64,000 bases of DNA from Candidatus Latescibacterota bacterium (GTDB taxonomy: Bacteria; Latescibacterota; UBA2968; UBA8231), in the NCBI GenBank assembly GCA_965200315.1, contig OZ241362.1:1984001-2048000 (forward strand). The letters are read 5' to 3'. Under the pieces are notes generated by a model that saw only the letters and a list, made by a program, of their open reading frames with translations, did no database searches and was not told the DNA's origin. This document shows positions 17,951 to 33,865 of this stretch, piece after piece. The position numbers and the translations under genes were made by a program. Position 1 is the stretch's first letter. Every line of letters starts with the position of its first letter.

Positions 17951-18949
17951 TCAGCGCCGGTTGCCCCCCTCGGGTCCGATCTCGCCCGTGCCCACCCCCA
18001 CGCCCGTAAGCACCTCGCTGTAGCCGGGATAGGTGACGGCGTATTGGAAGCCCTCGTTGGTGCCGGCCGCGCCAAAACGGCCCTGCTTGTCGAGCGCGAC
18101 GAAATTGAGGTGCAATTCCTCGACCGGCCGCGGGTCGAGCGCGACGATGCGGCGGATGGTCTCGACGCAGGCTTCCTGCGGGTGCAACCCCCCGCGCATG
18201 TATTCGACCGCGAGGAAGGTGGCGCAGTAGCGCATGACGTTCTCGCCCAAGCCAGTAGCTCCGGCCGCGCCCACGCCCCCATCGACGTACAGGCCGCTGC
18301 CGATGATCGGCGAGTCGCCAACGCGGCCCGGCAGCTTGTAGCCCCAGCCGCTGGTCGAGCAGCCGCCCGCGATCCGCCCCTCACCGTCGAGGCCAAGCAG
18401 GGCGATGGTATCGTGGTTGTCGGCCGCGCCCTGCTTGGCCCGCCATTTCTCCCACGCCTCGTGCCTTTCTTTCGTAAGCAACTCGACGCTGGCAAATCCC
18501 TGCTCCAGCGCGAATTGCCGCGCCCCTTCGCCCACGAGCATAACGTGCTTGGTCGCGTCCATCACCCGGCGCGCCACCGAGATCGGGTGCAGGATCCCCT
18601 CAATGGCGGCGACGCTGCCGGCGCGTTGTCCCTCGCCATCCATGATGCAGGCGTCGAGTTGCACCACGCCCCGGGCGTTGGGTATGCCGCCCAATCCTAC
18701 GGATGCGTTAGAGGCGTCGGCCTCGGCGACGTGGATGCCGCGCTCGACCGCGTCGAGAACCGAACCGCCCTGTTCGGCAGTCCGCAGCGATTGTTCGTTG
18801 GCCGCTTTGCCAAAGGGCCAAGTGGAGACGAAGAGAGGGCGGTCCGTGCTCATGGAAATGTCCTTTTCTGCACGCGCCGTCCCGGCAAGAGCTAGACCAC
18901 CGGCGGCTAGCGCGGTCTCGCGCATGAAGCGGCGGCGACTCAGCGGCAT
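17951..18949 (-). CDS. N(4)-(beta-N-acetylglucosaminyl)-L-asparaginase (glycosylasparaginase, Ntn hydrolase), Tat-exported
   Basis: Tat SRRRFM; STWPFG, LDACIMD, HD/TI autocleavage site, GRVGDSPIIG. Confidence 0.9.
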   Translation of the reverse strand: MPLSRRRFMRETALAAGGLALAGTARAEKDISMSTDRPLFVSTWPFGKAANEQSLRTAEQGGSVLDAVERGIHVAEADASNASVGLGGIPNARGVVQLDACIMDGEGQRAGSVAAIEGILHPISVARRVMDATKHVMLVGEGARQFALEQGFASVELLTKERHEAWEKWRAKQGAADNHDTIALLGLDGEGRIAGGCSTSGWGYKLPGRVGDSPIIGSGLYVDGGVGAAGATGLGENVMRYCATFLAVEYMRGGLHPQEACVETIRRIVALDPRPVEELHLNFVALDKQGRFGAAGTNEGFQYAVTYPGYSEVLTGVGVGTGEIGPEGGNRR

Positions 18950-18952
18950 GGC

Positions 18953-19411
18953 CTAATCCTCGTCGGCATTGTGATGGTCGCCATCGTCATCCGTGTTTTT
19001 ATGGGCGATGGCAGCGATCTCAACGCGAAAGTCAAAGACGATCTGTGCTCCACCAGTGCAGGCCCGCGCCGGGAATTGTTCTTTAAAGTAGGAAGCGTAT
19101 GCCTTGTTCATCTCGTGGTAATCTTCAATGTCCGCGAGCCAGACCGTGACGTTGACAAGGTCGTCGTACGCATAACCATGCTCTTCGAGTATGTGCCCGA
19201 TGTTTTCCATGATCTGATGAGTCTCCGCCGCGACCGACTCCTTGACGTCGGCACCGTCGGCCGTGCGGGCGATCTGGCCGCTGATGAAGAGGAGATCGCC
19301 GGCTTGGCGGGCCGGGCTGAAGGGCAGGGTCTTGAGCGGCACGGCCTCTTGGGCAAGGGCTGGCGAGACAGCGAGCGCACACGCGAGCGCGGCGCGGATG
19401 CAGCTTTTCAT
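18953..19411 (-). CDS. RidA/YjgF family protein with signal peptide
   Basis: PFSPA, LFISGQ, FPAR, VEI motifs; N-terminal ALACALAVSPALA. Confidence 0.85.
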   Translation of the reverse strand: MKSCIRAALACALAVSPALAQEAVPLKTLPFSPARQAGDLLFISGQIARTADGADVKESVAAETHQIMENIGHILEEHGYAYDDLVNVTVWLADIEDYHEMNKAYASYFKEQFPARACTGGAQIVFDFRVEIAAIAHKNTDDDGDHHNADED

Positions 19412-19604
19412 AAGGTATCTCCTAGTTTGGGTTAGACCTGTTAATAAGCTCAAAAGGCTCTAAGGCGACAACCGGCGCGGGCGGGGTTAAGGTTTTGAAT
19501 ATATTACCGTAAAGCCGTTACTGCATTTTTTTGACGGCGCGATGGTCTGCGCTTATTTTTTATGCCTCACAGAATTTCAAACCCCAATTAAGGAGATTCC
19601 AATT

Positions 19605-19808
19605 ATGGCCGAACGGACCTCCCGCGACCACGGCGAGCGCATTGGCCGCCTCGAAGGCATCATCGAGCAAATTAACGAGTGCCTCGGTGGCATAACCCGT
19701 CGCCTCGACAGCCTAGAAATCAACCACCGCCGAGACTTTCGCTGGCTCATCGGCCTTCAGTTGGCTACTTGGGCTACCATCGTTGGACTGAGATTATTTG
19801 GCGGGTAG
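19605..19808 (+). CDS. small coiled-coil protein with C-terminal membrane anchor
   Basis: RBS AAGGAG; RIGRLEG...RLDSLE...FRWLIGLQL. Confidence 0.65.
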   Translation: MAERTSRDHGERIGRLEGIIEQINECLGGITRRLDSLEINHRRDFRWLIGLQLATWATIVGLRLFGG

Positions 19809-19813
19809 CTGCC

Positions 19814-20437
19814 TTGCTAAAGACGCTTAAAGACATCGCTCGCGTCCAGATGGGCCTTTCCTTTCGTTCCCGCATTGAGCCGGATGCGGACGGGGCTTTT
19901 GCAGTCATTCAGATGCGCGACCTGACCGAGGATAACAAACTGAGCCGTCGCAATCTGATCACTATTGAGATAAACGGCCTCAGCGACCACCATTTGGTAA
20001 AACGCAAAGACTTGATTTTTCGCTCTAGAGGGCAGACCACTACGGCGACAATCGTTGATACGGAGATCGGTCCGGCGGTTGTCGCGGCGCCGCTGTTGAG
20101 AATCCGAGTTACGAGCAAGCACGTCCTGTCGGAGTATTTGTGCTGGTTCATCAACCAAGCGTCAGCCCAGGCGTTTTTGCACAGCAGGGCTACCGGGACG
20201 GCGATGACAGTGATTGGCAAATCCGCTCTCAATGAGTTGCAAGTTCCCCTGCCCGACCTTGCAACTCAGGAGCGCATCGTCGCCTTGGCCGATTTGTCGA
20301 ATAAGGAGCAGAAGCTGATGAGGGAGTTGGCCGAGAAGAAGGAAAAACTGGTCAACGGGATTCAGATGCGATGGGCGACAGAAGTATCCGCAGATGGACG
20401 CAGATGGGCGCAGATATTAAACCGATGGGAGCGATAA
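19814..20437 (+). CDS. hsdS: single-TRD (half-size) type I restriction specificity subunit
   Basis: DLIFRSRG, YLCWFIN, PLPDLATQERIV; directly upstream of hsdM; start approximate. Confidence 0.75.
   Translation: MLKTLKDIARVQMGLSFRSRIEPDADGAFAVIQMRDLTEDNKLSRRNLITIEINGLSDHHLVKRKDLIFRSRGQTTTATIVDTEIGPAVVAAPLLRIRVTSKHVLSEYLCWFINQASAQAFLHSRATGTAMTVIGKSALNELQVPLPDLATQERIVALADLSNKEQKLMRELAEKKEKLVNGIQMRWATEVSADGRRWAQILNRWER
20385..20415 (+). repeat. tandem 10-bp CGCAGATGGR repeats
   Basis: TATCCGCAGATGGACGCAGATGGGCGCAGAT; related copies at 21942, 26895, 30171 and 30236. Confidence 0.7.
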
Positions 20438-20441
20438 AAAT

Positions 20442-21953
20442 ATGAGCGATCAGATCCAGCAGAAAGATATCAACAGTGCCGCTTGGTCCGCTTGCGACAC
20501 CTTTCGCGGGGTGATGGATGCGACGGGATACAAAGACTACATTCTCGTGATGCTATTCCTCAAGTACATCTCCGATGTATGGAAAGATCACTACGAGGAA
20601 TATCAAAGAAGATACGGCGGTAATGATGAGCGCATCCGGCGTAGGTTGAAAAACGAGCGTTTTGTCCTGCCAGAAGGCAGCAGCTTTTACGACCTCTATG
20701 AACGGCGCTCGGAAGCCAATGTTGGCGAACTCATCAATATCGCACTGGAGGCGATTGAAACGGAGAACAAAGAGAAACTCGAAGATGTTTTCCGCAATAT
20801 AGATTTCAACAGCGAGGCCAATCTCGGCAAAACCAGAGATCGCAATCGCCGCCTGAAAATGCTACTAGAAGATTTCAACAAGCCCGAATTGAACATGCGC
20901 CCCAGCCGCGTTTCAGAAGATGTAATCGGCAATACTTACATCTATCTGATCGAGCGTTTCGCCTCTGACGCGGGAAAAAAAGCCGGCGAGTTCTACACGC
21001 CGCACAAGGTGTCCGAACTGGTCGCGAGACTGTGCGCTCCCAAGCGAGGAGCCCGCATCTGCGACCCCGCCTGCGGTTCCGCCGGGTTGCTGATTGAGGC
21101 GGCCCGCTTGGTGGGCGGCAAGGACTACGCCCTGTACGGCATGGAGGTGAACGGCAGCACTTGGGCACTGGCGCGGATGAATATGTTTCTGCACGGTGCC
21201 GACTCCGCCCGCATCGAATGGTGCAACACCCTTACTGCCCCAACACTGGCGGAAAACAACCAACTGATAAAGTTCGACAACGTGGTCGCCAATCCGCCGT
21301 TTTCGCTGGACAAGTGGGGCGCAGAAGACGCCGATGCAGATCCGTACAACCGCTTTTGGCGCGGAGTGCCGCCCAAATCCAAGGGCGATTACGCTTTCAT
21401 CAGCCACATGGTGGAAGCGGCGTTAGAAAAAGAGGGGCGGGTCGCGGTGGTGGCTCCGCACGGCGTTTTGTTCCGGGGCGGTGCCGAAGGGCGCATTCGC
21501 CAGCAGTTGATTGAAGAAAATTTGCTCGACGCCGTCATCGGCTTGCCCGGCAATCTATTCCCCACGACCTCGATACCAGTGGCCATTTTGGTCTTTGACC
21601 GCTCGCGGGAGCAAGGGGGGGCGCATGAGAGCCGCAAGGACGTTCTGTTTGTCGATGCGAGCCGTGCATATCAGGCGGGCAAGAATCAAAACACCTTGCT
21701 AGACGAGCATATCGAAAAGATCACCGCTACTTACAAAAAACGCGAAGACGTGGACAAATACGCCCATATCGCCACCTTTGAGGAAATCGCGGAAAACAAC
21801 TTCAACCTGAACATTCCGCGCTATGTGGATACCTTTGAGGAAGAGGAGGAGATTGATATTGATGCGGTGGGGAGAGAAATTGATCAGTTGGAGAAGGAAT
21901 TGAGTGTGGTGCGGGGGGAGATGGGGAGGTTGTTGCAAGGGATCCGCAGATAA
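20442..21953 (+). CDS. hsdM: type I R-M methyltransferase subunit (m6A)
   Basis: GEFYTP, DPACGSAG (motif I), NPPF (motif IV), NLNIPRY. Confidence 0.95.
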   Translation: MSDQIQQKDINSAAWSACDTFRGVMDATGYKDYILVMLFLKYISDVWKDHYEEYQRRYGGNDERIRRRLKNERFVLPEGSSFYDLYERRSEANVGELINIALEAIETENKEKLEDVFRNIDFNSEANLGKTRDRNRRLKMLLEDFNKPELNMRPSRVSEDVIGNTYIYLIERFASDAGKKAGEFYTPHKVSELVARLCAPKRGARICDPACGSAGLLIEAARLVGGKDYALYGMEVNGSTWALARMNMFLHGADSARIEWCNTLTAPTLAENNQLIKFDNVVANPPFSLDKWGAEDADADPYNRFWRGVPPKSKGDYAFISHMVEAALEKEGRVAVVAPHGVLFRGGAEGRIRQQLIEENLLDAVIGLPGNLFPTTSIPVAILVFDRSREQGGAHESRKDVLFVDASRAYQAGKNQNTLLDEHIEKITATYKKREDVDKYAHIATFEEIAENNFNLNIPRYVDTFEEEEEIDIDAVGREIDQLEKELSVVRGEMGRLLQGIRR

Positions 21954-21967
21954 AAAAGGATAAAGGC

Positions 21968-22360
21968 ATGAGACGACGAGAAGCTCGCCTCATTTTAGGT
22001 GTAGCTGAGGACGCCACCATAGAGACGATAAAGTCGGCGTTTCGCCGCTATGCCCTCAAGCATCACCCCGACCGCAACCCAGACGACCCAGTTGCCGAGG
22101 AGGCATTTAAGAAGGGTGCTCATGCTTATCGCTTGCTGACGGGGCAGGAGGGGTCCGACCTAGATGCGTTGTTCGAGCAGTTTGATGACATAGAGCAGGC
22201 CCTCGACAAAATGGAGCAGTCCTTTGACGAATTTGAAAAAAACGTGTCAGAAGGGCTCGACCGAATCGAAACCAAGATGTCCCGCATGTTTAAGTGGGTC
22301 ATCATCTTGATGATTTTCACGACCCTATCGTTGAGCCTTGTCATTCTGCTCGGTTTCTGA
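21968..22360 (+). CDS. J-domain protein with coiled coil and C-terminal TM helix
   Basis: ILGV...IKSAFRRYALKHHPDRN (HPD motif); hydrophobic C-terminus. Confidence 0.8.
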   Translation: MRRREARLILGVAEDATIETIKSAFRRYALKHHPDRNPDDPVAEEAFKKGAHAYRLLTGQEGSDLDALFEQFDDIEQALDKMEQSFDEFEKNVSEGLDRIETKMSRMFKWVIILMIFTTLSLSLVILLGF

Positions 22361-22378
22361 TAGCAGGAGGAGCAGACA

Positions 22379-22667
22379 ATGGCCAAGACCAAAACAACGC
22401 GCTACGACGTCGCCGAGCATCTGCGTACACCCGAGGAGATGGCGGCCCTGCTTTGAAGAAGCGGACAGCGATGCGGCCTTTATCACCAAAGCACTGAGCG
22501 ACATTGCTCGCGCCAGGGGCATGTCTCAACTCGCGAGGGATGCCGGTTTGTCTAAGGAGAGCTTGTACAAGGATTTGTCTGGAAAGCAGCCGCCGAGCTT
22601 CGATACGATCCTAAAGGTGGTGAACTCCTTGGGGCTGAAGCTGCGTACAGAAGCCATCAAACGCTGA
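22379..22667 (+). pseudogene. frameshifted addiction-module antidote (HigA-like HTH)
   Basis: MAKTKTTRYDVAEHLRTPEEMAA in one frame continues as CFEEADSDAAFITKALSDIARARGMSQLARDAGLSKESLYK in another; cognate toxin absent. Confidence 0.8.
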
Positions 22668-23870
22668 GTGTGTGGAGTGACTTTGAGTAGAATGACAGTG
22701 AAAAATGATGCGTTGCCGAAGGGGTGGCGGAGGGTGAGGTTGGGAGAGATATATAACATCTCAGCTAGCGGCGACCTTGATGCTAAATCAGCTTCCCCGA
22801 TTCAAGATGAAAAGCATCCTCATCCAACCTACTCTAACGCTCTCACAAATAAAGGACTACATAGCTATAGTAGCTATGCAAAATATGATGAAGATTCGAT
22901 TACAATTACCGCACGAGGTGATATTGGCTTTGCAAATCATAGAAAGACAAAATTCATGGCAATAGGCCGTTTATTAGTTCTGAAGAGTAAAGTTCCCGTC
23001 TCAAACAAGTTTGTTTGTGAATACATAAATCATAAAGTTAGATTTTTCAAAGAGACAACAGGTGTGCCACAGCTCACAGCACCTCAAGCAAGTAAATACT
23101 ACGTCATATTACCTTCCCTGCCCGAACAAAAAGCCATCGCCTCTTTACTGGAAACATGGGACGCGGCGATTGAGAAAACCGAAGCACTGATCGCGGCGAA
23201 GGAGAAGCAGTTTAAGTGGCTGCTGAAAACTCTCATCAGCGACCAGCAGGATAATCCTGAATGGCGAAAGGTGACGTTGGGGGAGATTGGAACCTTCTAC
23301 AAAGGGAAAGGAATCACAAAAGCCGACTTGGTTGATTACGGCATTTCTTGCCTACGCTACGCCGAAATCTACACGAAATACGATGGTATAGTTAATGAAT
23401 TATCTTCCTCTGTCAGTCCAGATGCAGCTACCAAGGCTACGCCGATTCAGTCTGGCGACATCATCTTCGCTGCTTCCGGGGAAACGGCTGCCGAAATCGG
23501 GAAGGCCATCGCTTTCGTTGGTTGCGACCCGGCGGTTGCCGGTGGTGACACCATAATTTTTCGTAATCACGGGCAAGAACCAGCCTATTTGGCACACATG
23601 CTCAATTCCACAGATGTAGCAAGGCAAAAGGCTCGTCTCGGCAAAGGTCAATCCGTCGTTCACATTCACGTCCCGGAGCTTTTTCAGGTTGAGGTGTCTC
23701 TTCCTCCTCTGCATGAACAACGCAAGATCGTCAAAATTTTGGCCACTTGGGACACGGCGGTTAAGAAAATCAAGGCCCTAGCCGAACTATACCGCACACA
23801 AAAGCACGGCTTGATGCAGAAGTTGCTGACGGGAAAGTGGCGGATAAACCTGAAAAAAGGAGACCATTAA
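22668..23870 (+). CDS. hsdS: type I R-M specificity subunit (two TRDs)
   Basis: LPKGW, PSLPEQKAIA, PPLHEQRKI, GLMQKLLTGK conserved regions. Confidence 0.93.
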   Translation: MCGVTLSRMTVKNDALPKGWRRVRLGEIYNISASGDLDAKSASPIQDEKHPHPTYSNALTNKGLHSYSSYAKYDEDSITITARGDIGFANHRKTKFMAIGRLLVLKSKVPVSNKFVCEYINHKVRFFKETTGVPQLTAPQASKYYVILPSLPEQKAIASLLETWDAAIEKTEALIAAKEKQFKWLLKTLISDQQDNPEWRKVTLGEIGTFYKGKGITKADLVDYGISCLRYAEIYTKYDGIVNELSSSVSPDAATKATPIQSGDIIFAASGETAAEIGKAIAFVGCDPAVAGGDTIIFRNHGQEPAYLAHMLNSTDVARQKARLGKGQSVVHIHVPELFQVEVSLPPLHEQRKIVKILATWDTAVKKIKALAELYRTQKHGLMQKLLTGKWRINLKKGDH

Positions 23871-23871
23871 A

Positions 23872-24546
23872 ATGGCCAGAAAGATTTTTGTTTCTTATAA
23901 ACACAGCGATAACTCTATTGAACCTCTCAGTAATTATGAAACGACAGCCCGTGCTTATGTGGATGAAATAATTGAATTATTTGAAGGAGATGAAATATAC
24001 AAAGGAGAGGGGAATGAAGATTTAAGTGAATTTAAAGACGAAACCATTGAGACGCATCTAAAAGATAAAATTTATGATAGTAGTATAACACTTGTTTTAA
24101 TTTCACCGAGTATGAAAGAAGATTGGTACAAAAAAGAATCTGACCAATGGATTCCTTGGGAGATATCCTACTCCCTCAAGGAAATCACGCGGAGTGGCCG
24201 CACGAGCCATACAAATGGAGTACTGGCGATTGTATTGCCAGATAGAGGCTCTTCCTATAGCTACTTTCTTGAGGAAGATTCTTGTCCATATTGCCACTGC
24301 ACAACTTTGCGTACCGACAAACTATTTCAAATACTGAGAGACAATATGTTTAATATAAAAAAGCCTACTTTTAATAATTGCTCTAACCATATGATTACCA
24401 ATCCTGTTTACATAGGGCAATCTTCCTACATTTATTCGGTCAAATGGTGTGATTTTGTAGGATATAAAGAGAAATATCTTAAAAAAGTAGAACATCTGAG
24501 AGACAGTATAGATGACTACAACATTAAGAAAACTGTAGAAGATTGA
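23872..24546 (+). CDS. TIR-like protein (ThsB/DUF1863-type) 1
   Basis: RKIFVSYKH, SSITLVLIS, WIPWEISYSL (catalytic Glu position); markedly AT-rich. Confidence 0.85.
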   Translation: MARKIFVSYKHSDNSIEPLSNYETTARAYVDEIIELFEGDEIYKGEGNEDLSEFKDETIETHLKDKIYDSSITLVLISPSMKEDWYKKESDQWIPWEISYSLKEITRSGRTSHTNGVLAIVLPDRGSSYSYFLEEDSCPYCHCTTLRTDKLFQILRDNMFNIKKPTFNNCSNHMITNPVYIGQSSYIYSVKWCDFVGYKEKYLKKVEHLRDSIDDYNIKKTVED

Positions 24547-24630
24547 CCCATACATAATAAGGACATCTATGTGCCTTATCTATACACTGTCCCTGATCAC
24601 CGGCATGCCAATTCACATAAGGAGACAAAT

Positions 24631-25155
24631 ATGGTTAACTTACCAAAAAGGAGAGCGTTTTACAGTTTTCACTATATCCCGGACAACTGGCGGGCGTCTC
24701 AAGTTCGCAATATCGGTGTTATCGAAGGCAATAGGCCAGCGACAGATAACGATTGGGAAGTAGTGAAACGGGGTGGAGACACAGCCATAGCTAGATGGAT
24801 CAGGACCCAAATGAAGAGAAGATCCTGTACTATTGTTTTAGTTGGTACAAACACTGCGAATCGCAAGTGGATCAACTACGAAATTAGGGAGTCTTGGAGT
24901 CAGGGAATGGGCGTTGTGGGCATTCGTATCCATGGCTTGGAGGACAAATATGGTCGTATTTCAAGGATGGGTACTAATCCCTTCTCCTACGTTAGAGTTC
25001 CAGGAACATGCACACTGATGTCAACCGTTGTGAAATGTTACAAACCACCGGGTCGGGACAGCACAAAGAAGTATAATTGGATCGCCGATAATCTTTCAGC
25101 GATGGTTGAAGAAGCAATCGCCATCCGCAACCAATATCCCCCTAGCAGGAGGTAA
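24631..25155 (+). CDS. TIR-like protein (ThsB/DUF1863-type) 2
   Basis: RRAFYSFHY, WRASQVRN, SCTIVLVG, RKWINYEI (catalytic Glu position); RBS AAGGAG. Confidence 0.9.
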   Translation: MVNLPKRRAFYSFHYIPDNWRASQVRNIGVIEGNRPATDNDWEVVKRGGDTAIARWIRTQMKRRSCTIVLVGTNTANRKWINYEIRESWSQGMGVVGIRIHGLEDKYGRISRMGTNPFSYVRVPGTCTLMSTVVKCYKPPGRDSTKKYNWIADNLSAMVEEAIAIRNQYPPSRR

Positions 25156-25161
25156 CGTCAA

Positions 25162-25608
25162 ATGACCAACGACGAACGTGTTGTAAAGCACTTGGAGTTT
25201 ATCCAAGGCGTCGTAAACCGCTTGGGCAACAACGCCTCCCTGCTCAAAGGCTGGAGCATGACCGTCCTCGTCGCTGGCTCCTTGTTGATGGTGCGATTTA
25301 GGCCAGAGCAGCCTCTATTGGCATTGACGCTTCTCGTGCCCGTTCTCGGATTCTGGCTAATAGACGCGTACTTCTTGTGGCAAGAGCGGTTGTTCCGCGC
25401 CGAATACGACCGCGTCCGCCAGCAAGACGAGACCGACTTTGCCATGAAGCCACTCCAGCACAAGGACAAGCCAAAACATAGCTGGCCCGCAGCATTTTTC
25501 TCGGTGACGCTGGTCGTTTTTTACGCCATAGAAATCCTGTTCGTCTCTGTTCTCGCCGGTGCTCTCTGGGTCGCAGGTAAACCGGCAGCGGGGAGCTCCT
25601 TAACATGA
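25162..25608 (+). CDS. small integral membrane protein (about 3 TM), putative TIR-linked effector
   Basis: KHLEFIQGVVNRLGNN..KGWS; FWLIDAYFLWQERLFR..YD; 6 bp after TIR2 with RBS GGAGG. Confidence 0.75.
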   Translation: MTNDERVVKHLEFIQGVVNRLGNNASLLKGWSMTVLVAGSLLMVRFRPEQPLLALTLLVPVLGFWLIDAYFLWQERLFRAEYDRVRQQDETDFAMKPLQHKDKPKHSWPAAFFSVTLVVFYAIEILFVSVLAGALWVAGKPAAGSSLT

Positions 25609-25656: not shown

Positions 25657-25689
25657 ATTTTACTCAATACACTGAGTAAAATTACTCAA
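25657..25689. promoter_or_regulatory. operator-like inverted repeat
   Basis: ATTTTACTCA-N6-TGAGTAAAAT perfect IR plus a third TTACTCAA half-site just upstream of ATG25703. Confidence 0.5.
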
Positions 25690-25702: not shown

Positions 25703-26893
25703 ATGACCTTCATCAGACCCCAAGCGTCCGAGCTAGCGCAGCGCCTGCAAGAACCCCGGCGGTTCATTCAAGTCGTCTCAGGGGCGCGGCAAGTAGGCAA
25801 AACAACCCTTGCCTTGCAAGTCGCGGAGCGGAGCAAACTGCCCTATCACGTCGCCAGCGCAGACGAGCCGACCCTGCGCGGTGCCGGGTGGATTGAATCG
25901 CAATGGGAGGAGGCGCGGCTGCTAGCCGACCGATCTGCCAGAAAAAACGCCTTGCTCATACTAGATGAAGTACACAAAGTTCCGCACTGGGCTGAAACGA
26001 TCAAGTACCTCTGGGACGAAGACACGCGCAAGAAACAATTGGTAAAAACCGTATTGCTCGGCTCGGCTCCGCTCTTAATCGGCAGAGGACTAACCGAAAG
26101 CCTTGCCGGCCGTCTTGAAATCCTGCACATGCCGCACTGGAGCTTTCCCGAGATGCGGGCGGCCTTTGGCTGGGATCTGAAACAATACCTTTTTTACGGT
26201 GCCTATCCGGGTGCCGTGCCTTTGATAAAACAACCATTCCGCTGGTCGCGCTACATAACAGACGCTCTCATCGAAACGACCGTCGGGCGCGATGTGCTCT
26301 TGCTCTCCCGCGTCGACAAACCGGCCTTGCTCCGGCGGCTGTTTGAACTCGGCTGTGCCTATTCGGGGCAAATCCTCTCCTATACAAAAATGACCGGGCA
26401 ACTTCAGGATGCGGGGAACACGACGACGCTTGCCCACTACCTCGACCTGCTCGCGGGTGCTGGCGTGCTCACCGGCTTGCCTAAATATGCCGGCGACACA
26501 GCGCGGCGGCAGCGATCAAGTCCCAAGTTTCAAGTCTTCAACACGGCACTAATAACCGCCCAGTCCGGCATGACTCAGGCGGAAGCGTTTGCCGACCGCG
26601 AGTTTTGGGGACGCTTGACCGAGTCCGCGGTGGGCGCACACCTGCTCAACGCATCGATTAGCGGAGTATGTGAACTCTTTTACTGGCGGGAGCGCAACCG
26701 CGAAGTGGATTTTGTCGTGCGGAGAGGAAGGAAGTTGGTGGCCATAGAAGTAAAAAGTGGACGCATCGGCATGGAATCGTTTGCCAAGTCCTTCAAACCG
26801 AGTCGCCTGTTAATAGTCGGCACAGGCGGAATTTCTCTCGAGCGGTTTCTCTCAGAGCCTGTAGGCTATTGGATAGATCACTCAGACCGATAA
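25703..26893 (+). CDS. AAA_14 ATPase with DUF4143 / PD-(D/E)XK-like C-terminus
   Basis: GARQVGKT, ILDEVH, ESLAGR, EVDFV...AIEVKS. Confidence 0.9.
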   Translation: MTFIRPQASELAQRLQEPRRFIQVVSGARQVGKTTLALQVAERSKLPYHVASADEPTLRGAGWIESQWEEARLLADRSARKNALLILDEVHKVPHWAETIKYLWDEDTRKKQLVKTVLLGSAPLLIGRGLTESLAGRLEILHMPHWSFPEMRAAFGWDLKQYLFYGAYPGAVPLIKQPFRWSRYITDALIETTVGRDVLLLSRVDKPALLRRLFELGCAYSGQILSYTKMTGQLQDAGNTTTLAHYLDLLAGAGVLTGLPKYAGDTARRQRSSPKFQVFNTALITAQSGMTQAEAFADREFWGRLTESAVGAHLLNASISGVCELFYWRERNREVDFVVRRGRKLVAIEVKSGRIGMESFAKSFKPSRLLIVGTGGISLERFLSEPVGYWIDHSDR

Positions 26894-26932
26894 CCCATCT
26901 GCGTCCTTATGCGGATAACCAGGAACAAAACC

Positions 26933-29900
26933 ATGCCCCCCTTCCCCATCAGCGAAAAATACCTCTCCCAGCTCCCCGCCCTACAACAGCTAATCAACCT
27001 AGGCTACCAATACCTCCCCTCCGCCCAAGCCATGGCAGAACGCGGCGACCGCGCCTCCAACGTCCTCTTGGAAAACATCCTGCGCGACCAGCTTAAAAAA
27101 ATAAACCGCATCCGCTACAAAGGCGGCGAGTATCTATTCAGCGAGGAGAACATTCAGTCTGCCATCCAGAAGCTCAAAACCGTCCACTACGATGGCTTGC
27201 AAAAGACGAACGAAGCGATCTACGACCTGATAACCCTCGGCACGGCACTCGAACAAACGATTGAAGGCGATTCCAAGAGTTTTACGCTGAACTATATCGA
27301 CTGGAAAAATCCCGCCAACAACGCATTTCACGCCGTAGCGGAATTCTCCGTTGAACGCGCCCGCCGTACAGAGACCGCAAAACCCGACATCGTCCTGTTC
27401 GTGAACGGCATCCCCCTAGTCGTGATCGAGTGCAAAGCCCCGGATATAGAGGTGGACCAAGCGGTGTCTCAAATGATCCGCAACCAAGGAGACGAATACA
27501 TCCCGCGGCTTTTCACGTACGCACAAGTGTTACTGGCCGTGAACAAAAACGAGGCCAAATACGCAACAGTGGGCACCGCAAAAGAGTTCTGGAGCGTTTG
27601 GGACGAGTTGGAAGATGCCGAGTGCAACGTGAATGTCTGCATCAATAAAGCGCTTTCCAGTAGGGACAAAGACGCCCTGTTCTCCGGTGAGTTCGCCTCA
27701 GCGCGATCGCACTTTGACGCACTTGAGCGCAGCGGCGACCGACTAGTTACAGAACAGGATCGCGGTCTCTACAGTTTGTGCCGACCCGAGCGCCTGTTGG
27801 AGATAATTTTCGGTTTTATAGTCTTTGACGTGGGCAGCAAAAAAATTGCTCGCTACCAACAGTTCTTTCTGGTCCGTGCCGCCGTGAAGCGCATCAAGCA
27901 AAGCAGGGGCGGTATCGTCTGGCACACGCAAGGTTCTGGAAAGTCCATCACCATGGTCATGCTGGCCCGCGCCCTATCTTTAGACCCGGAGCGGACCAGC
28001 CCGCGAATCATTCTGGTTACAGACCGCAAAGACCTAGACAAACAACTGGGCAATACCTTTGCGGCCTGCGGCTTGGACAAGGAGCGAGCGACATCCGGGC
28101 GCAATCTGATCAGACATATCAAAAAAAGAGTGGGCATCATCACCACCCTGATCAACAAGTTCGACAAGGCACTTTCGGCTGAGAAATACGTGGACGATTC
28201 GGCCGATATCATCGTCCTCGTTGACGAAAGCCACCGCACCAACTTCGGCGCCTTAGCAGCCCGCATGAGACAAATGCTGCCCAATGCCTGCTATATCGGT
28301 TTCACGGGGACGCCGCTGCTCAATAAAGAAAAGAACAGCTTTGCCCGATTTGGCGGTTTGATTGAACCGCATTATTCCGTCCGGCGGGCAATCGAGGACA
28401 AGGCTGTGGTTCCTCTGCTTTACGAAGGACGGCACGTGGAGATGGAGCAGAATCAAGCCGCCCTTGACCTCTGGTTCGCTCGCCACACCGAGGATTTAGC
28501 AGACGAACAAAAAGCAGACCTGAAGCGAAAATACGCACGTGCCCAAGCGTTGAGTAAGACCGATCAAGTCGTCTATATGTGCGCTTTTGATATTAGCAGG
28601 CATTTCCAGACCACTTGGCAGAACACGGGATTTAAGGCGCAGCTTGTCGCAGACAGCAAGGCGACCGCGCTCAAGTATCGCGAATCGCTCAACGAGATAG
28701 GCGCGGTATCATCCGAGGTCATTATCTCTCCGCCGGATACGCGGGAAGGGCATGAGGAAGTAAGCGCGGAGACGACAAGCAAGGTGATCCAGTTCTGGGA
28801 AAAAATGATGGCTCGCTACGGGTCCGAAGATCAATACACCAAGCGAATCATCGCCCAGTTCAAGCGCTCGGACAAACCGGAAATTCTAATCGTCGTGGAT
28901 AAACTCATCACCGGGTTTGATGTGCCGCGCAATACCGTGCTCTATCTGTGCCGCAAGTTGCGCGAACACACGCTGCTGCAAGCGATTGCCCGCGTAAACC
29001 GCCTACACGAGGGCAAGGAGTTCGGCTACATCATCGACTATGCCAATGTGCTGGGCGAACTCGACAAGGCGCTACACACTTATGACGCACTTGCAGGGTT
29101 TGACGGCGACGACCTCGCGGATCTCCTGACCTCCATCCACCGAGAAGTGTCAAAGCTGCCGCAGCGCTACTCAGACCTGTGGAGCGTCTTCAAGGAAATC
29201 AAAAACTCCCGTGATGAAGAACGCTATGAAGTGCTTCTATCTGACGACGCCGTGCGGAGTGAATTTTACGACCGCCTCACTGAATACAGCAAGACTCTTG
29301 CGATAGCCCTTTCAGCCGAGCAGTTCATTATGCAGACTGACGAGACGCAACTAAATCGCTACAAAAACGATCTCAAGCGTTTTCAGAAACTGAGAAAGGC
29401 AGTCCAACTGCGCTACGCCGAAACCATTGATTATCGCGACTACGAGCCCCGGATTAAAAAATTGCTGGATACGCATATTCAGGCCAACGAGGTCACTCGC
29501 TTAAATGATCCTGTGAATATGTTTGACGATAAAACTTTCTCTATGGTCAAAGAGAAGCAAGGCGTCTATCGAGCCAAGACTACGGCGGCAAGGGCCGACA
29601 TTATCGCTCATGCGGTCAAGCGCATCCTTACTGAAAACATGGACAAAGACCCGGCTTTCTACGAGAAGTTCTCCAAGCTCATTCAAGATGCGATTGACCG
29701 TTTCAGGAATCAGCGGCTATCGGCCCTTGACTATTTGCAAAAGGTGAGTGCTATCCGCGATGAGGTCGCCAACACCCAACGCGACGATGTGCCCGACTCT
29801 ATCCGCGATAACGAGGAGGCCAGCGCGTATTTTGGCGTGATCAAACCTTGTCTGACTGAGGTAGGTGCAAGCCGAGTTGACTATGTTGCGGCAAAAACGG

Positions 29901-30121
29901 CGCTTGCCGTCAAAAGCGCACTAGAAAAAAATTGGAAGGTGGATTTTTGGAACGATAGCGACGCGCAAAATGCGGCCAAAAACGAGATGGATGATTTCTT
30001 TTACGACGTGGTAAAAGAGGTGCATGGGGTTGATTTATCGTCGGCACAGATGGACGCAATGATCAGCCAAACCATGAAAATAGCCAAATTCTGGAGACAT
30101 TCTTATAGCAACCCGACGTGA
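26933..30121 (+). CDS. hsdR: type I R-M restriction subunit
   Basis: PDIVLFVNGIPLVVIECK nuclease motif; HTQGSGKS, DESHR, FTGTP, QAIARVNR helicase motifs. Confidence 0.95.
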   Translation: MPPFPISEKYLSQLPALQQLINLGYQYLPSAQAMAERGDRASNVLLENILRDQLKKINRIRYKGGEYLFSEENIQSAIQKLKTVHYDGLQKTNEAIYDLITLGTALEQTIEGDSKSFTLNYIDWKNPANNAFHAVAEFSVERARRTETAKPDIVLFVNGIPLVVIECKAPDIEVDQAVSQMIRNQGDEYIPRLFTYAQVLLAVNKNEAKYATVGTAKEFWSVWDELEDAECNVNVCINKALSSRDKDALFSGEFASARSHFDALERSGDRLVTEQDRGLYSLCRPERLLEIIFGFIVFDVGSKKIARYQQFFLVRAAVKRIKQSRGGIVWHTQGSGKSITMVMLARALSLDPERTSPRIILVTDRKDLDKQLGNTFAACGLDKERATSGRNLIRHIKKRVGIITTLINKFDKALSAEKYVDDSADIIVLVDESHRTNFGALAARMRQMLPNACYIGFTGTPLLNKEKNSFARFGGLIEPHYSVRRAIEDKAVVPLLYEGRHVEMEQNQAALDLWFARHTEDLADEQKADLKRKYARAQALSKTDQVVYMCAFDISRHFQTTWQNTGFKAQLVADSKATALKYRESLNEIGAVSSEVIISPPDTREGHEEVSAETTSKVIQFWEKMMARYGSEDQYTKRIIAQFKRSDKPEILIVVDKLITGFDVPRNTVLYLCRKLREHTLLQAIARVNRLHEGKEFGYIIDYANVLGELDKALHTYDALAGFDGDDLADLLTSIHREVSKLPQRYSDLWSVFKEIKNSRDEERYEVLLSDDAVRSEFYDRLTEYSKTLAIALSAEQFIMQTDETQLNRYKNDLKRFQKLRKAVQLRYAETIDYRDYEPRIKKLLDTHIQANEVTRLNDPVNMFDDKTFSMVKEKQGVYRAKTTAARADIIAHAVKRILTENMDKDPAFYEKFSKLIQDAIDRFRNQRLSALDYLQKVSAIRDEVANTQRDDVPDSIRDNEEASAYFGVIKPCLTEVGASRVDYVAAKTALAVKSALEKNWKVDFWNDSDAQNAAKNEMDDFFYDVVKEVHGVDLSSAQMDAMISQTMKIAKFWRHSYSNPT

Positions 30122-30266
30122 TTTGAACGATTCGAGCGGTGGCTAGTCTTGTGCCTCCTATTCTCCGTCTATCTGCGTCCATCTGCGGTTATCATGATGT
30201 AGGATTGCTATATGACAATCGATGACGACTATCCTGTGCCCATCTGCGGATAATCTAGGAACCACA

Positions 30267-31076
30267 ATGCCAAAAACAAACCGCACCCTCGCGTATGCCG
30301 GCGAATCTATTCCCTTTCACCTGAGTTATTCTAAAAGAAAGACGGTTGAGATCGCCGTTCACCCCGACGGCTCGGTAGTGGTAAAAGCCCCGCTAGGAAC
30401 AAATGAAACCCTTGTCGAAAATTTCGTTTACAAGCGCGTGCGCTGGATAAGACGCCAGCTTCGCCATTTCGCACAGTTTGGACCGCCCACTCCCAAGCGG
30501 CAGTTTGTCGGCGGCGAAAGCCATCTTTATCTCGGCAAACAGTACCGGCTGAAGATAAGGCCGTCTGCAACAGACCAGGTTCTACTAAAGCGCGGCTTCT
30601 TCCACATACAAGCGGTTGACGATACGCCGGAGCACATAGCGATGCTGCTTGAAGCATGGTATCGGAGCAAGGCGGAGGTTTACTTCGCTCAACTATTTGA
30701 AGAATGCTGGCAGATCTTTAGAGGCCCTAACAAAACCCGCGGGGCGATCTTCGCAACGCGGGCATCCCGCCCATGTCATTCCCGCGTAGGCGGGAATCCA
30801 GTTTTATTAGGGCCTCTCAAAAAAGAGGAAGTAGAAAAGCCTGTACTTAAAATCCGCAAGATGAAAACGCTCTGGGGCAGTTTCAGCGTTAAAAGCGGCA
30901 TAACATTGAATCTGGAGCTTATAAAAGCCCCTAGAGCATGTATCGAATATGTCGTTATTCACGAGCTATGCCATTTGCTTCATCTCAATCACGGCCCGGA
31001 GTTTTACAACTTGCTCGAGCAGTTTATCCCCGACTGGATCAAACGAAAACGTCGCCTAGAAACCGTATTGTCTTAG
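30267..31076 (+). CDS. M48/YgjP (DUF45) zinc metallopeptidase-like protein with an in-frame 33-codon insertion
   Basis: GESHLYLG, WGS, YVVIHELCH, HGPEFY; usual position after hsdR. Confidence 0.88.
   Translation: MPKTNRTLAYAGESIPFHLSYSKRKTVEIAVHPDGSVVVKAPLGTNETLVENFVYKRVRWIRRQLRHFAQFGPPTPKRQFVGGESHLYLGKQYRLKIRPSATDQVLLKRGFFHIQAVDDTPEHIAMLLEAWYRSKAEVYFAQLFEECWQIFRGPNKTRGAIFATRASRPCHSRVGGNPVLLGPLKKEEVEKPVLKIRKMKTLWGSFSVKSGITLNLELIKAPRACIEYVVIHELCHLLHLNHGPEFYNLLEQFIPDWIKRKRRLETVLS
30721..30816. mobile_element. 96-bp MITE inside the M48 gene
   Basis: TIRs GAGGCCCTAACAAAAC / GTTTTATTAGGGCCTC; TTA/TCA flanks; internal ATTCCCGCGTAGGCGGGAAT palindrome. Confidence 0.75.
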
Positions 31077-31321: not shown

Positions 31322-32263
31322 TCAATAGCCCTTGCGCTTGTCGATTACGCTCACCAACGGCTGCCCCGCCAAGTAGCGCCGCAAATTATCGCAAAACAAC
31401 GCCACGCACCGGCGGTCGCGGTTGGGCGATCCCCCGGCCGTATGCGGCGTTATCAGCACATTGTCCATCCGCCATAGCGGGTGCTCTGCGGGCAGGGGCT
31501 CCTGCGGCACTACATCCAATCCCGCCCCGCCGATCTGCCCGTCGGCAAGTGCCGCTATCAGTGCCTGCTCATCGACAATCCGCCCCCGCGTGACGTTGAT
31601 CAACAGCGCGTGGCTCCGCATCTGCGCAAACGCCTCTTGGTCGAACAACCCCTCAGTCTCCGCAGTCAGCGGCGCACAAATCGCCACCACGTCGGATTGT
31701 TCCAACAGAGAGTGGAATTGATCCATCCCCCAGCAGGCTTCCACTGCTCCCGGCACTTCGACCGCTTCTGGATCCACCGCGATGATCCGCATCCCAAACG
31801 CACTCGCCCGCTTTACCAACTCCCTCCCAGTCCCCCCCAATCCCACAATGCCCATCGTCTGCTCAACCAGTTCCCACGACGCGGCGCGAATCGGCCAGCG
31901 CCGCTCCCAATCTGGATAGCGCACGGCCGTGTGGATCCCCCGCGTCAGCCCGAGCAACAACGCCATTGCATGTTCGGCCAAATGCACTCCCACCCATCCC
32001 TTGGCGCTGCACAACACCACATCGCTGTCGACCAGTTCAGGATGCAATAATCCATCTACCCCCGCGCCCCAACTCTGCATCCACTTGAGCTTTTTCCGCC
32101 GCGCGAACATTTCCTCGCTGATGTGCCCGCAGACGACCTCGATCTCCGGCATAACCTCCAAGGCCGCCTCTGAATCCACCTGCACCACTTCTACTTCCTC
32201 GGCCACCTGCCGAATCTCCTCGATCAACTCCTCGGTTAAATCCATCTGCATCAAGACTTTCAT
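31322..32263 (-). CDS. D-2-hydroxyacid dehydrogenase
   Basis: GAGVD, GIVGLGGTG, INVTRG, LDV..QEP, TPHTAG; RBS GGAGG before ATG32263. Confidence 0.9.
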   Translation of the reverse strand: MKVLMQMDLTEELIEEIRQVAEEVEVVQVDSEAALEVMPEIEVVCGHISEEMFARRKKLKWMQSWGAGVDGLLHPELVDSDVVLCSAKGWVGVHLAEHAMALLLGLTRGIHTAVRYPDWERRWPIRAASWELVEQTMGIVGLGGTGRELVKRASAFGMRIIAVDPEAVEVPGAVEACWGMDQFHSLLEQSDVVAICAPLTAETEGLFDQEAFAQMRSHALLINVTRGRIVDEQALIAALADGQIGGAGLDVVPQEPLPAEHPLWRMDNVLITPHTAGGSPNRDRRCVALFCDNLRRYLAGQPLVSVIDKRKGY

Positions 32264-32350
32264 AAGCCCTCCTTCCCTTGCAATTGTCCGTCCTCGGCGG
32301 TAGGCCCTATTATTTGTTTTTCCCAATTCTACCAACCACGGAAGCAGGTC

Positions 32351-33865
32351 ATGCAAAATCACCTCGTCAAGACCCACCCAGACGGTACGGTCCTCCCGCG
32401 CGAAGAGCAATTGGCTTGGAAGCTGGCCCAGCTCGCCGCCCACAACCAAGCGGCCGACGCGGATGTCGTCGAGATGATCGGCAACCGCGTCATCGACAAC
32501 GCTGCGGTCGCCCTCGCCGCAATCAACCGGCCAGCGGTGCGCAACGCCCGCCTCCTCGCCCTCGGCTACCCCCATCCCCACCACAGCGGCGCCCGCCTCT
32601 TTGGCGTGGCCAACGACCGCAGCTTCCACTGCGAGTGGGCCGCCCTCGCCAACGGCGTGGCCGTGCGCGAACTCGACATGCACGACACCTACCTCGCGGC
32701 CGACTACTCGCATCCCGGCGACACCATCCCCGGCTTGCTCGCGGCCGCCCAGCAAACGGGTGCCGCGGGCCGCGCCCTGACCTTGGGCATACTCACGGCC
32801 TATGAGGTACAGATGGCACTGGTAACGGGCATTTGCCTACACGAGCACAAGATCGACCACGTCGCCCACCTCGCCCCGGCCGTGGCCGCCGGGCTTGGGA
32901 CCATGCTCCAGATGCCAGCCGAGCAAATCTACCAAGCCATCAACCAGAGCCTGCACCTAGCCTGCGCCACCCGCCAGTCGCGCAAAGGAGACATCACCTC
33001 GTGGAAGGCCTACGCCCCAGCCCAAGCCAACAAGATCGCCATCGAAGCGGTGGGCCGGGCGCGTCTCAGCGAGCGAGCACCGTCGCCCATCTACGAGGGA
33101 CGCGACGCCGTCATCGCTTGGATGCTGTCCGGGCCAGATGCCGAATACCGAGTTCCCCTGCCTGAACCGGGCGAGAACATGCGCGCCATCCTGCGCTCCT
33201 ACACCAAGGAACATTCGGCCGAATACCAAGCCCAAGCCCTGATCGATCTCGGCTTCCGGCTCCACGCTCGCCATATAGACTTAAACCAAGTAGAAGACGT
33301 CGTAATCCTCACCAGCCACCACACGCACTACGTGATCGGCACCGGAGCCAACGACCCGCAGAAAATGGACCCGGACGCCTCGCGCGAGACCCTCGACCAC
33401 AGCGCCATGTACATCCTCGCTGTCGCCTGGGAGGACGGCGCTTGGCACCACGTACATTCCTATACCTCGGAGCGCACCCACCGCCCCTCGACCGTCGCGC
33501 TGTGGCACAAGCTCCGCACCGAAGAAGTTGCCGAATGGACCCAAGCCTATCACCATCCCGATCCCGACCACAAGAAGTTCGGTGCCCAAGTCGTGGTGCG
33601 CCTCGCCGACGGCACTCAGATCGCCGAACGCCTCGACAACCCCAACGCCCACTACCTCGGCGAGCGGCCCTTTGCCCGGACGGACTACATCGACAAGCTA
33701 GCCGTATTGACCGAGGGACTCGTAGCGCCAGCCGAGGTTGAGCGCTTTCTGGGACTAGTAGACCGGTTGCCGGACCTGACGCCCGAGGAAGTGGGCCAGC
33801 TCAATCTCGTGGCAGCCGAGGGCATGTTGGAAGACGCCAGCAGCCCCCGCGTAGGCATTTTGTAG
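32351..33865 (+). CDS. prpD: MmgE/PrpD family protein (2-methylcitrate dehydratase-like)
   Basis: [43 protein letters not shown]. Confidence 0.8.

Follow-up and report, generated by a model that had tools for sequence, protein, structure and literature searches.

The closest described relatives of the locus considered here are Thoeris defence systems, in which ThsB-type TIR proteins are paired with an effector. A recent survey predicts 29 Thoeris configurations, verifies types V to XI and describes one TIR cluster that pairs with different effectors (Yirmiya et al., bioRxiv 10.64898/2025.12.03.692087, December 2025). In type V, as described there, ThsB is combined with ThsF, a protein annotated as Pfam DUF2270 with three predicted membrane-spanning helices. 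The reported trigger is 3' cyclic ADP-ribose (3'cADPR), and an AlphaFold3 prediction presents ThsF as a heptameric channel with basic pockets. Type VII, according to the same source, consists of ThsB and the SLATT-domain protein ThsH, with cyclic ADP-ribose (cADPR) as the signal. For type I, both TIR1 and TIR2 of Bacillus dafuensis are reported to make a cADPR isomer that activates ThsA, their phage ranges are additive, and several ThsB genes per effector are presented as normal in Thoeris (Ofir et al., bioRxiv 10.1101/2021.01.06.425286). The present analysis concerns three genes, here called TIR1, TIR2 and the membrane gene, at positions 23872-25608 of a 64,000-nucleotide stretch of DNA from Candidatus Latescibacterota bacterium (assembly GCA_965200315.1, contig OZ241362.1, positions 1,984,001 to 2,048,000). 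This whole stretch is referred to as the window, and all positions are counted within it. The three genes probably constitute a Thoeris-family TIR signalling cassette of a type that the PADLOC database already catalogues as the candidate system PDC-M50.

The genes are three intact, co-oriented open reading frames (ORFs) on the forward (+) strand, located between the hsdS and hsdR genes of a type I restriction–modification (R-M) operon. TIR1 (23872-24546) encodes a ThsB-type TIR protein of 224 aa and begins 1 nt after the stop codon of hsdS. TIR2 (24631-25155), also of the ThsB type, ends 6 nt before the ATG of the membrane gene (25162-25608), which encodes a helical inner-membrane protein of 148 aa. 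AGGAG-type ribosome sites lie upstream of all three genes, the one for the membrane gene being AGGAGG. The ORF of TIR2 can also be read from a GTG (24571-25155, 194 aa). Its true start is probably the ATG at 24631, because an AGGAG lies 7-11 nt upstream of it and the PADLOC and Protein Data Bank (PDB) matches begin there; the protein then has 174 aa, and 84 nt lie between the two TIR genes. The preliminary description had placed a tightly spaced, co-oriented trio between hsdS and hsdR inside an R-M operon. The ORF coordinates and the 1-nt and 6-nt spacings agree with this layout, although the description did not mention the PDC-S01 ATPase gene, which lies between the membrane gene and hsdR.

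TIR2 and the membrane protein form an adjacent, co-oriented match to PDC-M50 in PADLOC-DB v2.0.0. All four PDC-M50A models recognise the membrane protein (best 1.8e-32) and the PDC-M50B model recognises TIR2 at 3e-61; the pair is therefore identified with the catalogued candidate. PDC-M50 is a computational candidate composed of a small membrane protein (A) and a TIR protein (B), to which the window adds a second TIR class in the form of TIR1, whose own match to the PDC-M50B model is 0.014. Candidates of the PDC series come from genes found inside other defence loci. In a full-text literature search, the name PDC-M50 appeared in no paper. The idea that the locus represents a distinct, undescribed type of TIR defence is not supported: PADLOC lists the pair, TIR1 is close to a solved ThsB, and type V Thoeris has been verified.

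Both TIR proteins pass the Pfam ThsB_TIR cut-off of 21.2 bits, TIR1 with 25.7 bits and TIR2 with 94.3 bits (6.7e-27). PADLOC assigns both to ThsB as well, TIR1 over its full length (PDLC00428, 1.8e-78) and TIR2 at 1.4e-64. The nearest solved structure to TIR1 is PDB chain 9vyl_A, entitled 'Putative cyclic ADP-D-ribose synthase TIR1', which it matches over residues 1-222 at 5.9e-83, with the stretch QWIPWEISYSL and the CPYC.C cysteine cluster conserved between the two. Going by its name alone, 9vyl would be TIR1 of the type I Thoeris system of B. dafuensis. The cysteine cluster of TIR1 (CPYCHC) belongs to a Cys-rich C-terminal extension, and Glu97 is the predicted catalytic residue. TIR2 matches PDB chain 8wcf_A (4e-32) and the ThsB chains 6lhy_A and 9b7d_A (both about 3e-21). 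Its predicted catalytic residue is Glu84, and the Glu of its WINYEI motif aligns with that of WVRYEI in the solved ThsB chains. A literature search on 9VYL and 8WCF found nothing relevant, and no NCBIfam model was obtained for TIR1, TIR2 or the membrane protein. The earlier assignment of two ThsB-type TIR proteins that keep the catalytic Glu is thus upheld by Pfam, PADLOC and the structural alignments. All motifs on which it relied are present in the translations, namely WIPWEIS and CPYCHC in TIR1, WINYEIR in TIR2, and KHLEFIQGVVNRL and DAYFLWQERLFR in the membrane protein. The absence of SIR2, SLOG, Macro and caspase domains from the cassette, noted at the same time, was also seen in the Pfam, PADLOC and NCBIfam scans.

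The evidence that the membrane protein belongs with the TIR proteins comes mainly from other genomes, where its family adjoins ThsB-type TIR genes far above chance, in several phyla and on plasmids. Two samples of loci were compared, one from the phylum of the window and one from species genomes; they overlap in some genomes and include many related ones, so that their counts are not independent. Within the phylum, PDC-M50A is carried by 31 of 168 genomes. A Pfam ThsB_TIR ORF directly adjoins the membrane gene at 16 of the 29 non-self loci, in both gene orders, and TIR fragments only are found at three more (3/29). The species-genome sample comprises the best 80 of 441 relatives, and 47 of these 80 loci have a ThsB-type TIR ORF on the same strand at a distance of at most 3 kb. 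For scale, the window's own genome of 5.36 Mb contains 4 ThsB_TIR matches. The TIR genes could be classed at 44 of these 47 loci, of which 25 have only TIR2-like genes, 11 have both classes and 8 have only TIR1-like genes. The number of TIR genes that accompany a single membrane gene ranges from one to three, and they are of different classes. The membrane gene is also found on 126 plasmids, and an annotated TIR gene lies directly downstream of it in all three that were inspected (Klebsiella, Priestia and Vibrio), as it does on an Escherichia coli chromosome. The Klebsiella-type cassette is present in 33 of 5426 complete E. coli genomes. A blastn search with the window cassette gave no match in E. 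coli genomes, and the homologues there surfaced via the Klebsiella copy alone. The same PADLOC models assign the E. coli, Priestia and Vibrio homologues to PDC-M50A. The preliminary description had asked whether homologues of the membrane protein are enriched beside TIR genes; both samples and the three plasmids answer this in the affirmative.

Rare gene fusions add to this picture. In the proteins P0210 and P0150, a SLOG cluster-2 domain is fused to the PDC-M50A module (1e-48 to 1e-49), and in P0122 the module is fused to a ThsB TIR. An effector role is the best reading for a module that is joined to a sensor of nucleotide ligands and accompanied by between one and three TIR genes. The early proposal that the membrane protein is a signal-gated effector therefore appears likely, judging from its TIR linkage in several phyla and on plasmids and from the SLOG and TIR fusions.

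Several loci contain neighbours of other kinds. A Macro-domain gene directly precedes the membrane gene in L003 (L003:1868-2563) and L007 (L007:2-1411). In L007 it is part of a DarT-Macro pair, with a TIR fragment downstream. These Macro neighbours suggest that the membrane module has other partners that handle ADP-ribose. At loci without ThsB, a gene resembling nucleoside 2-deoxyribosyltransferase (PF05014) lies directly downstream of the membrane gene (L075:3374-3931) or about 1.3 kb downstream (L090:4729-5196), and a TIR_2-TPR protein is encoded upstream of it in L092. Partners of these kinds may consequently be under-counted when only a ThsB hidden Markov model is used. The closest relatives of the membrane protein span metagenome-assembled genomes labelled as Latescibacterota, Poribacteria, Binatia, Nitrospirales and Gammaproteobacteria at 50-60% identity (loci L035-L114). 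This distribution suggests that the module has spread horizontally among co-occurring uncultured bacteria.

The family of the membrane protein is very large and has no dedicated Pfam model. At an E-value limit of 0.001 it comprises 5717 representative clusters, a limit of 1e-10 leaves 4204, and a name or Pfam domain was found for none of the 120 listed among 616 relatives of near-equal length. No Pfam family is matched above its cut-off by the window protein itself, and with E values up to 10 allowed, DUF3278 (E 0.0036) is the only one to match, below its cut-off. An AlphaFold2 model (27-sequence alignment, pLDDT 78.7) consists of a helical hairpin formed by residues 3-46 and 51-87 and a third helix at 115-139. 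In a Kyte-Doolittle scan two stretches are strongly hydrophobic, and a third, at about residues 30-46, stays under the threshold. The earlier estimate of about three transmembrane helices is consistent with both results. Structure searches gave little further information: Foldseek against the PDB returned nothing at E up to 0.001, VIA-align against 48,161 chains returned generic helical hairpins and bundles alone (best Z 9.7), and the ESM Atlas yielded unnamed clusters, the nearest named one being 8xMP at 0.86. A prediction of the protein as a four-copy oligomer (alignment A1) scored 0.27, the mark being 0.42, and speaks neither for nor against an oligomer. The literature on 8xMP and DUF3278 yielded nothing relevant. 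Across 139 representatives of the family, R20 and K29 are invariant, and H10, L11, Q15, S25, W31, F64, L67, D68, L72, E75, R79, Y82 and S114 are conserved in at least 90%. The conserved residues border membrane helices one and two on what would, by the positive-inside rule, be the cytoplasmic side, and they may form a ligand site there.

A mechanism can be proposed by combining these features with those of characterised relatives. TIR1 and TIR2 would represent two unrelated classes of ThsB-type protein, each of them both a sensor for a different phage cue and a synthase that converts NAD+ into a signal of the cyclic ADP-ribose type. Given the closest characterised relatives of the two proteins, 3'cADPR would be the most likely signal. 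By analogy with ThsF, the signal would bind to the conserved, mostly basic cytoplasmic face of the membrane protein, formed by H10, R20 and K29 before the first membrane helix and by D68, E75, R79 and Y82 after the second. The membrane protein would then, again by analogy with ThsF, assemble or open in the inner membrane and thereby stop the infected cell. The cassette as a whole is one of several passengers in a variable slot of the R-M operon, others being the PDC-S01 ATPase, a J-domain membrane protein and a helix-turn-helix (HTH) gene.

The cassette closely resembles type V Thoeris, a verified system, and is likely to be of this type. Like type V, it pairs ThsB-type TIR proteins with a small helical membrane protein of about three helices, and its TIR proteins are related to producers of 3'cADPR. 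Weak matches to the DUF2270 model, PF10028, occur in 25 of 139 family representatives, and the nine that were inspected singly share one register. One of these representatives, P0248, is a PDC-M50A member (2.8e-49) that reaches 25.2 bits with PF10028, for which the cut-off is 25. The residue pairs aligned by hhalign between the membrane family and DUF2270 proteins include W31/W46 and D68/E83, together with the RLFRxxYD stretch against RRYRFYD. The membrane family thus borders DUF2270, and a distant homology is possible from sequence, though unproven. The ThsF proteins that have been tested may well belong to the same family as the membrane protein of the window.

A number of observations weigh against reading the cassette as a Thoeris system, particularly one of type V; some of them are taken up with the rival explanations below. 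The window membrane protein itself has no match to PF10028. The hhalign comparison of its family with 32 DUF2270 proteins gave a probability of 10.6% over 48 columns, and that of the family profile with a single DUF2270 protein gave 0.7%. With a length of about 230 aa, proteins of the DUF2270 core differ from the window protein (148 aa), and the one example examined stands in a housekeeping context. None of three core DUF2270 proteins matched the PDC-M50A models, nor did that of L115. No PF10028 match occurs in the phylum, in which 168 genomes were searched and 31 carry PDC-M50A, or in 5 further genomes with the membrane family. In 301 Bacteroidota genomes PF10028 had 1 match, in a housekeeping context, and PDC-M50A had 7. 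No published experiment could be tied to the PDC-M50A membrane family. Finally, no TIR gene neighbours the membrane gene at 10 of the 29 phylum loci and 33 of the 80 species-genome loci.

Other described systems share parts of the same architecture. As in the type I Thoeris system of B. dafuensis, where ThsA accompanies TIR1 and TIR2, two mutually dissimilar ThsB genes stand in tandem, and the logic of several sensors acting on one effector appears to be the same; this comparison relies on the account of bioRxiv 10.1101/2021.01.06.425286. The effector in the window is a membrane protein, unlike the SIR2-SLOG protein ThsA, and no SIR2-SLOG ThsA was found among the island genes with Pfam, PADLOC or NCBIfam. 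The proposed gating of a membrane-disrupting effector by a TIR signal would be shared with type VII and with type II, in which ThsB is paired with a TM-Macro protein. The SLATT module is also known in fusion with SLOG, as PDC-M50A is in the proteins described above. The window membrane protein has no SLATT match in Pfam at E up to 10, and SLATT was absent from the families listed for 27 relatives and from the first 25 of 114 families listed for 139. No Macro match was found with Pfam in TIR1, TIR2 or the membrane protein. Two-gene TIR systems named TIR-I to TIR-IX, one of them with a transmembrane partner, are reported as validated in E. coli (Wang et al. 2024, PMC11350192). The cassette was compared with TIR-I, whose proteins on pSTU288-1 have 367 and 376 aa, and this identity was ruled out.

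The window's own genome contains a second TIR cluster, 1.6 Mb away (L116:3747-6083, at genome positions of about 3,607,200-3,609,600). It consists, in order, of an HTH gene, a ThsB_TIR gene, a gene for a 164-aa membrane protein of the Pfam family 8xMP (3.9e-38) and two TIR_2 genes; its GC content is lower, and it lies between a fragment of a type I methyltransferase gene and a fragment of hsdS. The genome thus holds two cassettes of TIR genes and a small membrane protein, each inside R-M remnants. The window cassette resembles this 8xMP (PF24838) arrangement in having a small membrane protein beside TIR genes. Weak 8xMP matches occur in 11 of 139 relatives of the window membrane protein. For the window protein itself, no 8xMP match appears with an E limit of 10, and hhalign of its family against the 8xMP protein of the same genome gave 5.1%.

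Base composition bears on the question of whether the three genes act as one system. The GC content is 0.351 for TIR1, 0.465 for TIR2 and 0.553 for the membrane gene, compared with 0.587 for the whole window, and such strong differences point to different histories and a piecemeal assembly. The TIR genes had been described as AT-rich, which is markedly true of TIR1 and less so of TIR2. An unlikely but arguable explanation is that the three genes are not one system at all: TIR2 and the membrane protein would be the functional PDC-M50 pair, and TIR1 would be a stray ThsB, recently captured from a low-GC type I Thoeris system and either signalling to nothing here or cross-talking. The low GC of TIR1, the type I Thoeris name of its closest solved relative and the unequal fit of the two TIR proteins to the PDC-M50B model are all compatible with such a capture, as is the frameshift in TIR1 of L016/L035, the sole relative with the same trio, in which TIR2 and the membrane gene are intact. 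The wider sample argues otherwise, since a TIR1-like gene stands beside the membrane family at 19 of the 44 classed loci; at L022, a TIR1-type gene alone accompanies the membrane gene. The 1-nt distance from hsdS to TIR1 fits co-transcription, and the multiplicity of ThsB genes per effector reported for Thoeris also makes a second sensor unexceptional. The roles could also be reversed, with the TIR proteins killing through NAD+ depletion and the membrane protein serving as a sensor, regulator or anchor. Such TIR effectors are described in CBASS, Pycsar and pAgo systems, and this possibility is listed as a limitation for unverified TIR configurations in bioRxiv 10.64898/2025.12.03.692087. It is very improbable for the window cassette: both TIR proteins are short, ThsB-type and closest to signal-producing ThsB proteins, the SLOG fusions have the layout expected of a sensor feeding an effector module, and one membrane gene is served by up to three TIR genes of different classes.

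The closest relatives of the membrane protein raise a different question, namely whether the TIR genes are needed at all. In the ten relatives whose membrane proteins are 75-85% identical to that of the window, the membrane gene is intact without TIR genes in eight, and TIR genes are kept only in L035, where TIR1 is frameshifted, and L039. The pairwise dN/dS of these orphan membrane genes is 0.15-0.375, compared with 0.11-0.19 for TIR-linked ones. Orthologues of the window's J-domain gene (73-88% identity) adjoin the membrane gene in six of the ten (L035, L036, L038, L040, L042 and L043), and in L042 the J-domain gene and the membrane gene alone fill the slot between the same two host genes that flank the island in the window. 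In this symbiont-type lineage, the membrane gene would have persisted undamaged over long periods with no TIR gene nearby, beside a membrane-anchored J-domain protein. It could be supposed that the membrane protein here works with the J-domain protein, with the R-M system or with TIR signals from elsewhere, such as the second TIR cluster of the window's genome, the adjacent TIR genes being optional. This explanation is improbable, and the pattern that favours it is partly built in, because the search that yielded the loci was made with the membrane gene. The genomes are also kin, so that one ancestral island is counted many times. In L015, a 20-residue remnant of TIR2 lies directly upstream of the membrane gene, which indicates that TIR genes were lost and not originally absent. 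The J-domain neighbour was seen only in this lineage, and a TIR gene is the dominant neighbour outside it. A Thoeris-family cassette of the PDC-M50 type thus remains the preferred reading, and the orphan copies may be on their way out, may answer TIR genes elsewhere in the genome or may have a TIR-independent trigger. That they are kept beside a J-domain membrane protein is the one unexplained point. It is conceivable, if unlikely, that PDC-M50A forms a separate lineage of effectors, to which the tested ThsF proteins do not belong and which is gated not only by TIR proteins in cis; it would then respond to a TIR in trans or to a chaperone-linked cue, and the TIR genes of the window would be recent extra sensors.

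All genes of the R-M island that surrounds the cassette are on the + strand. It starts with a half-size HsdS-like type I specificity gene (19679..20437; Pfam Methylase_S 1.5e-8, PADLOC Specificity_I 4.8e-28), followed by hsdM, the type I R-M methyltransferase gene (20442..21953; NCBIfam TIGR00497 8.5e-83, 278.8 bits with a cut-off of 242.75). The next gene encodes the J-domain protein, of 130 aa with a hydrophobic C-terminal tail (21968..22360; Pfam DnaJ 3.5e-16), for which PADLOC gave no match. It is followed by an HTH gene of the 'addiction module antidote' type, whose start is uncertain (22338..22667; Pfam dnstrm_HI1420 1.3e-20, NCBIfam TIGR02684 8.3e-23), and by hsdS, which encodes a full-length type I specificity subunit of 400 aa (22668..23870; NCBIfam NF007278 5.7e-10, under the curated cut-off). 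Beyond the cassette lies the gene for the PDC-S01 ATPase, a 396-aa protein with AAA_14 (4.8e-23) and DUF4143 (1.6e-28) domains that matches a single-gene PADLOC candidate (25703..26893; PDLC04791, 8e-169). In relatives, its presence or absence is independent of the TIR genes, and it is a separate, embedded passenger between the membrane gene and hsdR. The type I restriction subunit gene hsdR (26909..30121; NCBIfam TIGR00348 5.4e-140) and a gene for a YgjP-like metallopeptidase (30222..31076; Pfam YgjP-like 4.1e-55) complete the island. A perfect 9-bp inverted repeat at 25658-25681 (TTTTACTCA, 6 nt, TGAGTAAAA), which may be an operator or an RNA hairpin, lies in the 94 nt that separate the membrane gene and the ATPase gene. 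A scan of the island for promoters and terminators found sites no more numerous than in shuffled sequence.

The island, at about 19.5-31.2 kb, is lower in GC than the host flanks, which have 0.62-0.67. Five of the ten closest relatives (L036, L038, L040, L042 and L044) use the same chromosomal site: orthologues of the left-flank genes at 17951-18949 and 18953-19453 of the window are 87-94% identical in them, and the right flank (31322-32755) has 76% identity in L042. The content of the slot differs in every relative and includes R-M genes, PDC-S01, RhuM, TIR genes, and fragments of hsdM and YgjP genes. The slot has the appearance of a hotspot for defence islands, in which genes are gained and decay. 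That defence genes can sit inside R-M operons is already known, and the nesting of the cassette fits this pattern. The preliminary description proposed that the cassette backs up the R-M system.

The cassette is thus probably a new and complete example, with two sensors, of a kind of defence system that is catalogued and has probably been tested already, and it represents no new class of immunity. It documents, from a little-studied phylum, the complete two-sensor version of a widespread and poorly characterised Thoeris-type module, and it presents this module as an exchangeable passenger that occupies a slot of an R-M operon. An effector role for the membrane module is supported by its fusions to SLOG and TIR domains, and the conserved polar residues on its predicted cytoplasmic face are candidates for ligand-site mutants. 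In view of the orphan copies, which persist next to a J-domain membrane protein, it may be asked how such an effector is controlled.

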